A stretch of 4,230 nt of DNA from a virus (Duplodnaviria; Heunggongvirae; Uroviricota; Caudoviricetes). The stretch is from the IMG/VR virus record IMGVR_UViG_2713896789_000014; one strand, written 5' to 3'. Below are positions 689-3,955 of this stretch, one piece after another; position 1 is the first letter of the stretch; every line of letters begins with the position of its first letter. The notes under the pieces are model-generated. The model had not been told where the DNA came from. It saw nothing but the letters and a program-made list of their open reading frames with translations, and ran no database searches. The translations under genes and the position numbers were made by a program.

Positions 689-2270
689 AACGAACGCCTG
701 TCCTGATTGATGTGAACGGCGTTCCGCTTCGGGAGAGTCTCAGCTACCACGGGGGCGGTGCAGGATTTGGCGGGCAAATGGCGGAGTGGTTGCCACCGGC
801 GCAGAGTGCCGATGCGGCCCTGCTGCCCGCGTTGCGTCTGGGGAATGCCCGTGCAGATGATCTGGTACGCAATAACGGGATAGCGGCTAATGCGGTGGCC
901 CTGCATAAGGATCATATTGTCGGGCATATGTTTCTTATCAGCTACCGTCCGAACTGGCGCTGGCTGGGGATGCGGGAGACTGCGGCAAAAAGTTTTGTCG
1001 ATGAGGTGGAGGCGGCCTGGTCGGAATACGCAGAAGGGATGTTTGGCGAGATCGACGTGGAAGGGAAACGCACGTTCACGGAATTTATCCGTGAAGGTGT
1101 GGGCGTTCATGCCTTTAACGGCGAAATCTTTGTGCAGCCGGTCTGGGATACGGAAACCACGCAGTTATTCCGCACGCGTTTTAAAGCCGTGAGTCCGAAA
1201 CGGGTGGACACGCCAGGACACGGTATCGGGAATCGTTTTCTGCGGGCCGGGGTGGAGGTCGATCGATATGGCCGTGCCGTTGCGTACCATATCTGTGAGG
1301 ATGATTTTCCTCGCTCCTGGAGTGGACGATGGGAACGGATCCCGCGTGAACTTCCCACCGGGCGTCCGGCCATGCTGCATATTTTCGAGCCGGTGGAGGA
1401 CGGGCAGACCCGTGGGGCCAATCAGTTTTACAGCGTTATGGAACGGCTGAAGATGCTGGATTCCCTGCAGGCAACACAGCTTCAGTCGGCCATTGTTAAA
1501 GCCATGTATGCAGCGACGATTGAAAGTGAACTTGATACCGAAAAGGCCTTTGAATATATCGCGGGGGCACCGCAGGGTCAGCAGGATAATCCGCTTATTA
1601 ATATTCTGGAGAAGTTCTCCAGCTGGTATGACACGAATCATGTGACGCTGGGCGGTGTCAAAATTCCGCACCTTTTCCCCGGGGATGATCTGAAACTGCA
1701 GACCGCGCAGGATTCAGACAATGGATTTTCGGCGCTTGAACAGGCGCTGCTGCGGTATATCGCCGCCGGTCTTGGCGTTTCCTACGAACAGTTGTCCCGT
1801 GATTACTCGAAGGTCAGTTATTCAAGTGCCCGCGCCTCCGCCAATGAGTCGTGGCGCTATTTTATGGGACGACGAAAATTTATTGCAGCCCGGCTGGCCA
1901 CGCAGATGTTTTCCTGCTGGCTGGAAGAGGCACTTCTTCGGGGGATTATCCGTCCGCCACGGGCACGTTTTGATTTTTATCAGGCGCGATCAGCCTGGTC
2001 GCGGGCAGAGTGGATTGGTGCCGGAAGAATGGCCATTGACGGGCTCAAGGAGGTCCAGGAATCGGTGATGCGTATTGATTCCGGACTGAGCACCTATGAG
2101 AAAGAGCTGGCGCTGATGGGTGAGGATTATCAGGACATTTTCCGCCAGCAAGTCAGGGAATCCGCAGAGCGGGAAAAGGCCGGACTCTCACGTCCGGTGT
2201 GGATAGCGCAGGCGTATCAGCAGCAGATAGCGGAGAGCCGCAGGCCGGAAGAGGAGACAACACCACGTGA
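685..2270 (+). CDS. B: Portal protein (lambda gpB-like); 3' end and stop codon lost in the N gap at 2271-2320
   Basis: ATG at 685 overlaps the W stop (ATGA at 685-688) and follows GGGAGTGAGG (673-682). About 528 codons are open before the gap, against a recalled ~533 aa for lambda gpB. Extensive recalled similarity to lambda gpB includes YHGGGAGFGGQ, NARADDLVRNNG, FEPVEDGQTRGANQFYSVME, LQSAIVKAMYAATIESELDT, LRYIAAGLGVSYEQLSR and SGRMAIDGLKEVQE. The ORF-track extension to 2343 reads through Ns and is not reliable. Confidence 0.9.
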
Positions 2271-2320
2271 NNNNNNNNNNNNNNNNNNNNNNNNNNNNNN
2301 NNNNNNNNNNNNNNNNNNNN
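2271..2320. other. Run of 50 N (assembly/scaffold gap or masked sequence) at the B/C junction
   Basis: Exactly 50 consecutive N characters seen in the sequence. Comparison with lambda suggests the B stop, the C start and roughly 60 N-terminal codons of C are missing, so the true gap is probably longer than 50 nt. Confidence 0.95.
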
Positions 2321-3468
2321 GACGAGTACATGGCCGGAGGTAAACGACCGGCCCGTGTTTACCGGGTGGTGAACGGTATTGCTGTACTGCCGGTGACCGG
2401 CACGCTGGTGCACCGGCTGGGTGGCATGCGGCCATTTTCCGGAATGACAGGCTATGACGGCATTGTCGCCTGTCTTCAGCAGGCAATGGCGGATAGCCAG
2501 GTGCGGGGCGTATTGCTGGACATTGACAGTCCGGGCGGGCAGGCCGCAGGCGCGTTTGACTGCGCTGACATGATTTACCGCCTCCGGCAGCAGAAGCCGG
2601 TCTGGGCACTGTGNNNNNNNNNNNNNNNNNNNNNNNNNNNNNNNNNNNNNNNNNNNNNNNNNNGGAGTGGATATCACGCTGATTTATGCCGGGGCGCATA
2701 AGGTGGATGGCAATCAGTTTGAAGCGTTACCGTCAGAGGTGCGTCAGGACATGCAGCAGCGCATTGATGCGGCGCACCGGATGTTTGCCGAAAAAGTGGC
2801 GATGTATACCGGGCTGTCTGTGGATGCGGTCACGGGGACAGAGGCTGCCGTTTTTGAAGGTCAGTCCGGTATTGAGGCCGGACTGGCGGATGAATTAATC
2901 AATGCGTCGGATGCCATCAGTGTGATGGCTGCGGCGCTGAACACACATGATACAGGAGGCACTATGCCGCAATTAACTGCAACNNNNNNNNNNNNNNNNN
3001 NNNNNNNNNNNNNNNNNNNNNNNNNNNNNNNNNCTTGCCACGATGCTGGCAGGACAACAGGGCATGAGCGTTGAACAGGCCCGGGCGATTCTGGCCGCGG
3101 CAGCATCACAGCAGCCGGTGGCATCCGCGCAGAGTGAAGCCGATCGCATTATGGCGTGTGAAGAAGCGAAAGGTCGTGAACAACTGGCGGCAACGCTGGC
3201 GGCGATGCCGGAGATGACGGTGGAAAAAGCCCGCCCTGTCCTGGCGGCTGCACCACGGGCGGATGCCGGGCCCTCACTCCGTGATCAGATTATGGATCTG
3301 GATGAGGCAAAAGGGGCTGAGGCGCAGGCTGAAAAACTGGCGGCCTGCCCGGGAATGANNNNNNNNNNNNNNNNNNNNNNNNNNNNNNNNNNNNNNNNNN
3401 NNNNNNNNGTGCCACAGACGTCAGCAGACGGTGATGCGGACGTGAAAATGCTCATGGCCATGCCATGA
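2321..3468 (+). CDS. C: Prohead protease / minor capsid protein (lambda gpC-like, ClpP/S49-type), interrupted by three 50-N gaps; start codon lies in the gap at 2271-2320
   Basis: Three segments match the recalled lambda gpC sequence. Segment 2321-2613: RPARVYRVVNGIAVLPVTGTLV…MTGYDGIVACLQQA…LLDIDSPGGQAAGAFDCADMIYRLRQQKPVWAL. Segment 2664-2983: GVDITLIYAGAHKVDGN…QQRIDAAHRMFAEKVAMYTGLSV…TEAAVFEGQSGIEAGLADELINASDAISVM. Segment 3034-3468 is Nu3-like and ends at TGA 3466-3468. The window frame changes across the gaps at 2614-2663 and 2984-3033, consistent with gaps of unknown true size. Confidence 0.8.
2614..2663. other. Run of 50 N inside the gpC-like gene
   Basis: Exactly 50 N. In lambda about 46 codons separate the flanking motifs (KPVWAL … GVEITLIY), so roughly 140 nt are probably missing. 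The reading frame is not preserved across the 50-N placeholder. Confidence 0.95.
2954..2959 (+). promoter_or_regulatory. Internal ribosome binding site (AGGAGG) for the nested Nu3-like start
   Basis: Perfect AGGAGG 4 nt upstream of the in-frame ATG at 2964, inside the C coding sequence. Confidence 0.6.
2964..3468 (+). CDS. Nu3: Scaffolding protein (lambda Nu3-like), translated from an internal in-frame start within the C reading frame; interrupted by two 50-N gaps
   Basis: ATG at 2964-2966 is in the C frame and preceded by a strong Shine-Dalgarno AGGAGG (2954-2959) at 4-nt spacing. It lies at the position corresponding to where lambda Nu3 begins inside C (lambda …SGGRMTKETQ…). The downstream sequence (…RIMACEEAKGREQLAATLAAMPEMTVEKARPVLAAAP…) matches the recalled lambda Nu3 region (…RIMGILNCEEAHGREEQARVLAETPGMTVKTARRILAAAP…). 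Stop is TGA at 3466-3468. Confidence 0.65.
2984..3033. other. Run of 50 N inside the C/Nu3 region
   Basis: Exactly 50 N. The frame on the two sides is inconsistent with a true 50-nt distance, so the gap size is unknown. Confidence 0.95.
3061..3358 (+). repeat. Diverged in-frame tandem repeat (about 150-nt / 50-aa period, at least two copies) within the Nu3-like scaffold coding region
   Basis: Copy 1 begins GMSVEQARAILAAA (from 3061) and contains ADRIMACEEAKGREQLAA. Copy 2 begins EMTVEKARPVLAAAP (from 3211) and contains RDQIMDLDEAKGAEAQAEKLAA. A third copy appears to begin at GM (3352-3357) just before the N gap. Recalled lambda Nu3 has a single copy of this motif. Confidence 0.55.
3359..3408. 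other. Run of 50 N near the 3' end of the C/Nu3 frame
   Basis: Exactly 50 N. It begins right at the start of a putative third copy of the Nu3 repeat motif. Confidence 0.95.
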
Positions 3469-3503: not shown

Positions 3504-3955
3504 ATGGTGACGAAAACCATCACTAAACAGCGTGCGGAAGTACGTATTTTTGCCGGTAATGATCCGGCTCACACCGCCACAGGCAGCAGCGGGATTTCTC
3601 AGGCAACACCGGCACTGACGCCCCTGATGCTGGANNNNNNNNNNNNNNNNNNNNNNNNNNNNNNNNNNNNNNNNNNNNNNNNNNAGGCAGCAGCGGGATT
3701 TCTCAGGCAACACCGGCACTGACGCCCCTGATGCTGGATGAAGCCACCGGGAAACTGGTGGTCTGGGACGGACAGAAAGCCGGTAGTGCGGTTGGCATAC
3801 TGGTACTGCCGCTTGAAGGCACAGAGACGGTGCTGACCTATTACAAGTCGGGGACCTTTGCGACGGAGGCAATCCGCTGGCCTGAAAGTGTGGATGAACA
3901 CAAAAAGGCCAACGCCTTTGTCGGCACAGCCCTGAGTCACGCGGCGCTGCCGTAA
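3504..3955 (+). CDS. D: Head decoration protein (lambda gpD-like); apparent disruption is an assembly artefact (50 N plus a 54-bp duplicated contig end)
   Basis: ATG at 3504 with TGAGG upstream (3489-3493); stop TAA at 3953-3955. The core …DPAHTATGSSGISQATPALTPLMLDEATGKLVVWDGQKAGSAVGILVLPLEGTETVLTYYKSGTFATEAIRWPESVDEHKKANAFVGTALS… matches recalled lambda gpD (…DPAHTAT…MTPLMLD…KLVAWDG…AAVGIL…YKSGTF…WPE…AFAGTAIS). Joining 3634 directly to 3739, which removes the Ns and one copy of the duplicate, gives a continuous 115-aa ORF. Confidence 0.85.
3581..3634 (+). repeat. 54-bp segment, copy 1 of a perfect direct duplication flanking the N gap
   Basis: aggcagcagcgggatttctcaggcaacaccggcactgacgcccctgatgctgga at 3581-3634 is identical to 3685-3738. 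Confidence 0.9.
3635..3684. other. Run of 50 N inside the gpD-like gene; probably a zero-length gap between overlapping contigs
   Basis: Exactly 50 N flanked by identical 54-bp sequences. Removing the Ns plus one repeat copy restores the D reading frame. Confidence 0.9.
3685..3738 (+). repeat. 54-bp segment, copy 2 of the perfect direct duplication flanking the N gap
   Basis: Identical to 3581-3634 and located immediately after the N run. Confidence 0.9.

Follow-up and report, generated by a model that had tools for sequence, protein, structure and literature searches.

The triple Tri box repeat of a phage-21-type scaffold gene, read through the gaps of a draft assembly: candidate modules for attachment inside the capsid shell

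Results

Head operon and protease/scaffold gene

By its gene content and nearest matches, the window (the whole stretch of 4,230 nucleotides analysed here) is the head operon of a phage-21-type lambdoid prophage. Open reading frames (ORFs) and their nearest database matches place along it the 3' end only of a large terminase gene, then a gpW-like gene (482-688), a portal gene (685 onward), a gene for an S49 prohead protease and scaffold (2267..3468, + strand), a decoration-protein gene (3504-3955) and the start only of a major capsid gene (4013 onward), and this synteny of terminase, gpW-like, portal, protease/scaffold, decoration and major capsid genes matches the annotation of phage 21 and of E. 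coli UC4224. UC4224 is the closest complete sequence, with 98-100% identity across the six sequenced segments of the window, and cultured phage 21 is 92-96% identical to the window over the matching segments, including 93.8% DNA identity over the segment that carries the repeat (3034-3358). The region was present at >=90% identity in 1,870 of 5,426 complete E. coli genomes, and at up to 5 places in a single genome.

The protease/scaffold gene begins with a GTG codon and is the homologue of phage 21 gene 5 and lambda C. In the window it is broken by four runs of 50 N; the real gene is 1506 nt long (501 aa), and it is a 99-100% match to the annotated 'S49 family peptidase' of UC4224. A scan of the complete relative, which is 99-100% identical over the matching segments, found Pfam Peptidase_S49 (PF01343, E=5e-35) in the N-terminal part of the frame. 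The head maturation protease family phrog_53 matched with E=1e-223, and SppA in the PDB matched the S49 peptidase domain with E=2e-16.

A Shine-Dalgarno sequence, AGGAGG (2954..2959, + strand), was read from the sequence and coincides with the ribosome_binding_site annotated for gene 6 of phage 21 in GenBank M81255. It precedes ATG 2964, which is the annotated gene 6 start (MPQLTAT...) both in M81255 and in the relatives, and together these two elements mark a predicted internal start from which a separate scaffold protein would be made. This nested in-frame gene (2964..3468, + strand, stop TGA 3466-3468) is the homologue of phage 21 gene 6 and lambda Nu3, and its real product is 200 aa long. 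The original prediction had the scaffold region begin at 3043, but the ATG there is an internal methionine and not a gene start. Because the scaffold is read in frame within the 3' part of the protease gene, protease and scaffold end in the same C-terminal segment, made up of three repeat units and a tail. Relative to phage 21, the scaffold part carries 8 synonymous and 9 non-synonymous codon changes and the protease part 18 and 8, respectively, the nine amino-acid differences falling within 108 visible scaffold residues. These numbers are small, and suggest that constraint is weaker in the scaffold part than in the protease part.

Assembly gaps

The window contains five N-runs, each exactly 50 N long. 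They are conventional scaffold gaps joining short contigs, and ORFs read across them are therefore unreliable. Measured against UC4224, the runs at 2271-2320, 2614-2663, 2984-3033 and 3359-3408 replace 170, 136, 73 and 125 nt; these four conceal the stop codon of the portal gene, stretches of the protease domain and one half each of two repeat units. The fifth run (3635-3684) is of another kind: the sequences on its two sides, 3581-3634 and 3685-3738, are identical over all 54 nt, an overlap with nothing missing in between. After merging this overlap the decoration-protein gene is intact, and the ORFs running across the N-run are artefacts. The 54-nt overlap would fit a branch point in a de Bruijn graph with k=55, the value of k being read back from the overlap. 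The gaps are spaced 276-375 nt apart, and four of the five sequenced pieces between or after them measure 226-325 nt, resembling the output of an assembly into very short contigs.

The repeat itself had been proposed as a contributor to these breaks. As a cause of the gaps it was rejected: only two of the five N-runs touch the repeat, the longest exact run shared by the copies is only 8-11 nt at a DNA identity of 50-62%, and at the last N-run the contig ends overlap by 54 nt. Graph branching caused by multi-copy prophage head genes that are 90-99% identical within one genome is the more likely origin. The window is thus a clean example of how the N-runs of a draft assembly can hide parts of genes and create false ORF starts.

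Three Tri units in the nested scaffold gene

GenBank M81255 ('Bacteriophage 21 head gene operon') annotates gene 6 with three repeat_region features, the 'Tri1 box', 'Tri box' and 'Tri3 box', which carry the note 'function unknown; putative'. Translated, these boxes are exactly the Tri1, Tri2 and Tri3 units of the window, and on this match the repeat is the already known triple Tri box repeat rather than a new expansion. The paper behind the record is presumably Smith & Feiss 1993, Gene 126:1; no mention of Tri boxes was found in the papers of the literature search.

The complete relatives, UC4224 and phage 21, have three complete units in the scaffold gene, namely Tri1 (ENQRVMGILTCQEAKGREQLATMLAGQQGMSVEQARAILAAAA), Tri2 (SEADRIMACEEAKGREQLAATLAAMPEMTVEKARPVLAAAP) and Tri3 (SLRDQIMDLDEAKGAEAQAEKLAACPGMTVENARAVLAAGS). 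In the window, all on the + strand, HMM unit coordinates place the visible part of Tri1, helices 2 and 3 (LATMLAGQQGMSVEQARAILAAAAS), at 3034..3108, where the GenBank Tri1 box maps to ~3008-3111. Alignment to UC4224 and phage 21 showed that the preceding N-run (2984..3033) conceals TEAAAQENQRVMGILTCQEAKGREQ and with it the first half of Tri1 (ENQRVMGILTCQEAKGREQ). Tri2 is complete (SEADRIMACEEAKGREQLAATLAAMPEMTVEKARPVLAAAPRAD), with its HMM match at 3133..3264 and the GenBank Tri box at 3148-3258. Tri3 is visible with helices 1 and 2 (SLRDQIMDLDEAKGAEAQAEKLAACPGM) at 3274..3358, the GenBank Tri3 box mapping from 3289 to ~3402. Past 3358 the complete relatives read on as TVENARAVLAAGSGKAE, and the N-run at 3359..3408 hides, by alignment to UC4224, TVENARAVLAAGSGKAEPVSASTTALFEHFMANHSPAAVQGG, covering the third helix of Tri3 and the first part of the tail. 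The remaining C-terminal tail (VPQTSADGDADVKMLMAMP, 3409..3465, + strand) is not repeated; it is conserved in the alignment of homologues, and a short helix is predicted in it at ...VKMLMAM. With the hidden halves read from relatives that are 98-100% identical on the flanks, the window appears to carry three tandem units at the annotated positions.

The translation of 3034-3357, LATMLAGQQGMSVEQARAILAAAASQQPVASAQSEADRIMACEEAKGREQLAATLAAMPEMTVEKARPVLAAAPRADAGPSLRDQIMDLDEAKGAEAQAEKLAACPGM, was aligned with itself, and its best off-diagonal local score was 85 (BLOSUM62) against 29.5±5.5 with a maximum of 47 in 300 shuffles. In the register of the original prediction, the copies 3061-3210 and 3211-3358 share 57% protein identity (26/46) and 62% DNA identity over aligned bases, with a DNA score of 88 against 32±7.5 for shuffles. 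Both alignments bear out the proposal that a helical motif has been multiplied in tandem within the Nu3-like scaffold region, and the proposed unit is a circular permutation of the structural unit, which is legitimate for a tandem array. Several details of that proposal needed adjustment. The copies are diverged, as stated, but the estimate of about 70% DNA identity was somewhat high, and in the structural register the Tri units are only 50-59% identical in DNA. A period of about 150 nt is exact for the first spacing (150 nt), while the second is 141 nt. A third copy does start just before the gap at 3359; the real gene, however, has three complete units instead of two and a beginning. Nor does the repeat run throughout 3043-3468, as 3409-3468 is the non-repeated C-terminal tail. 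Tandem Repeats Finder reported no repeat in the window, the copies being too diverged, and DNA repeat finding returned mostly N-run artefacts and short seeds.

Predicted structure of the unit

The units share the signature I[ML]..EAKGRE.LA..LA..PGM[TS]VE.A...LAAAP. An AlphaFold2 model of the window's Tri2, built with 34 aligned units, reached a pLDDT of 91.3 and a pTM of 0.66, with helices at residues 2-8, 16-23 and 30-39, and each unit of ~40 aa is predicted to fold alone into three short helices. The model of the whole gp6-like protein was of lower confidence (pLDDT 67, pTM 0.26), with values of 74-78 in the units and 60-64 in the linkers, which are Pro/Gln/Ala-rich. In this model the protein resembles a flexible string carrying three beads, followed by a tail in which two short helices are predicted. 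The title of Medina et al. 2011 reportedly calls lambda gpNu3 intrinsically disordered. This is hard to square with a stably folded module, and the unit may fold only on binding.

No match to gp6 came from a sequence search of the PDB, and none from Foldseek with the whole gp6-like model of low pTM; neither Pfam nor NCBIfam had a model matching the unit above threshold. A helix-hairpin-helix (Pfam HHH PF00633 / HHH_5) was considered and rejected: phage 21 Tri3 scored 15.2 bits against a cutoff of 24, and weak matches occurred in only 1-2 of the 34 units.

Two features of the sequence stand apart from this general pattern. At 3304-3321, within Tri3 (EAKGAEAQ), the near-invariant Arg-Glu-x-Leu of AKGRE.L is replaced by Ala-Glu-Ala-Gln in the phage 21 lineage, while unit 3 of the Salmonella homologues keeps the motif; functional decay of Tri3 through loss of the Arg is possible. 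The helix that follows each unit is also similar from place to place (SEADRIM, SLRDQIM), as are the tails ALFEHFM of the phage 21 type and ALDRLM of lambda. The C-terminal tail may thus start with the degenerate first helix of a further unit, which hints at sites of unequal crossover.

Copy number, age and spread of the unit

The unit HMM found three units in phage 21, in UC4224 and in 80 of 80 IMG/VR relatives, and PHROG single-unit profiles likewise match gp6 in three stretches. Of the 1,875 matching E. coli records, 1,869 have one and the same length, that of three units. The homologue alignments thus speak against an expansion specific to one lineage, which had been raised as a possibility. 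The statement that lambda Nu3 has a single copy of the motif was correct, as both the unit HMM and BLASTP find one unit there. Among cultured phages the three-unit form occurs in 20 records and a single unit in ~97, including lambda, 434, HK630, N15, phi80 and mEp237.

Salmonella homologues also have three units, and phage 21 units 1, 2 and 3 each find their best match in the unit at the same position, from which it follows that the triplication is old. Single units of the lambda type are nearest to unit 1, which is the best conserved between lineages (71-79% identity, compared with 59-67% for units 2 and 3). In BLASTP, phage 21 gp5 and lambda gpC align colinearly along the protease and as far as Tri1. 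Judged from these alignments, the single unit of lambda is the positional orthologue of Tri1, and units 2 and 3 are additional copies that arose long ago.

Another type of E. coli prophage, found in 106 of 5,426 genomes, has four units, of which units 2-4 are mutually 79-87% identical; by this resemblance the four-unit form is a recent amplification. One such scaffold (GCA_032727965.1 contig, 1-6042) lies in a lambda-type head module with S49, HDPD decoration, Phage_cap_E, FI and FII-like genes, and on this contig the head module is followed by baseplate genes (GPW_gp25, Baseplate_J), that is, a lambda-like head is combined with a contractile-tail module. Rare two-unit forms exist as well: P0021 is an in-register Tri1/Tri2 hybrid and P0018 is without Tri2, and both look like in-register deletions.

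The unit profile was then searched against 1.84 billion representative proteins, and 1,809 protein clusters matched at the cut-off of E<=1e-3. Among the best 150 of these 1,809 clusters, 149 were counted on re-scanning, with one unit in 136 (~90%), two units in 10 and three units in 3. The large proteins that were checked consist of an S49 domain with the unit near the C-terminus, save for four apparent fusion artefacts, and many of the other matches are small, stand-alone proteins. The four exceptions (P0138, P0139, P0143, P0160) have lambda gpC fused to Nu1, tail protein U, tail protein L or tape-measure protein, and are almost certainly mis-assemblies or vector-derived chimeras. In two distant two-unit proteins, P0123 and P0120, the units of each protein are most alike each other, which points to independent duplications. 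A viral-contig search with the unit alignment returned near-identical phage-21-like loci only and no diversity, and a word-index search of proteins gave mainly partial ones.

Stand-alone unit proteins of 123 and 153 aa were found in Methylocystis bryophila AP027149 (4535-11511) and on a contig of Logan SRR25568644. Their genes adjoin homologues of head-decoration and small-terminase genes in an island with integrase, AlpA-like HTH and primosomal-DUF1376 replication genes. Within 6 kb of the stand-alone units no ORF could be recognised as a gene for portal, capsid or large terminase, and several ORFs there had no family match. By their gene content these islands resemble a phage satellite, whose unit protein might redirect the capsid assembly of a helper.

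Discussion

The observations above are very probably explained by the known phage-21-type triple Tri box repeat, built from three-helix modules that would serve to attach scaffold and protease inside the capsid shell. The Tri modules are putative weak protein-binding units through which the scaffold would be held to the inside of the assembling shell, and the shared tail segment would attach the protease there too. Three units per chain would give three attachment points and hence avidity, and the S49 protease would destroy the scaffold after assembly. The most likely partner of the units, I infer, is the major capsid protein. Lambda Nu3 is reported to interact with the capsid protein E, the protease C, the portal B and itself (PMC3224144), and in phi29 and P22 a short helical element of the scaffold contacts the capsid protein (PMC11922011); it is on these grounds that the units are taken as weak protein-binding modules. 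The independent duplications, the recent amplification to four units and the 1,809 clusters were counted as evidence of selection on the module.

Other roles for the units have to be weighed against attachment to the shell. They could be self-association modules that join scaffold chains and the identical tail of the protease into a scaffold core without touching the shell. I regard this as possible but doubtful: Nu3-Nu3 and C-Nu3 interactions are reported in lambda (PMC3224144), the nested genes place the module in both protease and scaffold, and small three-helix bundles often mediate protein-protein contacts, but the single unit of lambda would have to do the job alone and the sequence bears no resemblance to a coiled coil. 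Recruitment of the portal (gp4, the homologue of gpB), which would nucleate assembly at the portal vertex, is less probable. It would accord with lambda, in which B depends on Nu3 to enter the procapsid and combines with C and Nu3 in an initiator complex (PMC3224144). The stand-alone units, on the other hand, occur in island-like loci with no portal gene recognised within 6 kb. Moreover, the scaffold of tailed phages is probably far more numerous than the 12 portal subunits, which also argues against this role.

Alternatively, only unit 1 might be functional, with units 2 and 3 a tolerated spacer left over from old unequal crossovers and of little effect on assembly. The stronger conservation of unit 1, the lost Arg of Tri3, the two-unit variants P0021 and P0018 and the sufficiency of one unit in lambda would all agree with such a spacer. 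It is nevertheless improbable given that three units are uniform in the E. coli records and kept position by position in Salmonella, that other lineages independently amplified the unit to 2 or 4 copies, and that the unit HMM still gives units 2 and 3 scores of 80-87 bits. That the repeat is an assembly artefact, or a cis element acting at the DNA or RNA level instead of a protein repeat, has a negligible chance of being right and is already refuted. The window is indeed pieced together from short contigs and contains one genuinely artefactual duplication of 54 nt, and GenBank enters the Tri boxes as DNA repeat_region features. The repeats, however, lie inside one uninterrupted contig (3034-3358) and recur in complete genomes and cultured phages; the amino-acid motif is kept in distant homologues, the units are only 50-62% identical in DNA, and Rfam gave no match for the repeat.

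The original prediction further suggested that the repeat could alter scaffold length or stoichiometry and hence prohead assembly. The analysis gave no sign of an effect on stoichiometry or prohead size. Against a role in capsid size, the major capsid proteins of phage 21 and lambda are colinear and 62% identical although their scaffolds carry three units and one, so that the extra units are not needed for this capsid type. A bolder proposal, which I hold as speculative and rather unlikely in its entirety, is that the Tri unit is an unrecognised, widespread and autonomously folding scaffold module, repeatedly amplified from one to two, three or four copies to tune the valency of S49-linked scaffolds, and present on its own in satellite-like islands, where it might redirect the assembly of helper capsids.

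The triple repeat has stood in the GenBank record of phage 21 for decades and as a finding matters little. A modest interest remains in the variability of the module's copy number, its binding partner and its presence in satellite-like islands.

Among known systems, the C-terminal helix-turn-helix of P22 gp8, phi29 gp7 and the staphylococcal 80alpha scaffold and SaPI1 CpmB would resemble the Tri units in function only: in each, the capsid protein is contacted by a short helical part of an internal scaffold that is itself transient. No match of the Tri units to these motifs, by sequence or by fold, was found, and the Tri units are internal and repeated instead of forming a single C-terminal motif. 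Phage 21 gene 6 is the same gene as that in the window, nested in gene 5 and with three units at the same positions, and differs in that the window's copy is incomplete through two N-runs. Lambda gpC/gpNu3 shares with the window the operon order, the nested in-frame scaffold and a homologous protease (54% identity). It differs in having one homologous unit (NSRIMGILNCEEAHGREEQARVLAETPGMTVKTARRILAAAP, aligned with Tri1) instead of three and a longer leader ahead of it, and in lambda the tail follows the unit directly, opening with a stretch (ALDRLM) that is similar to helix 1 of another unit. Across distant phages, the only conserved part of Nu3-type scaffolds is this small, predicted three-helix module, in a copy number of 1 to 4.
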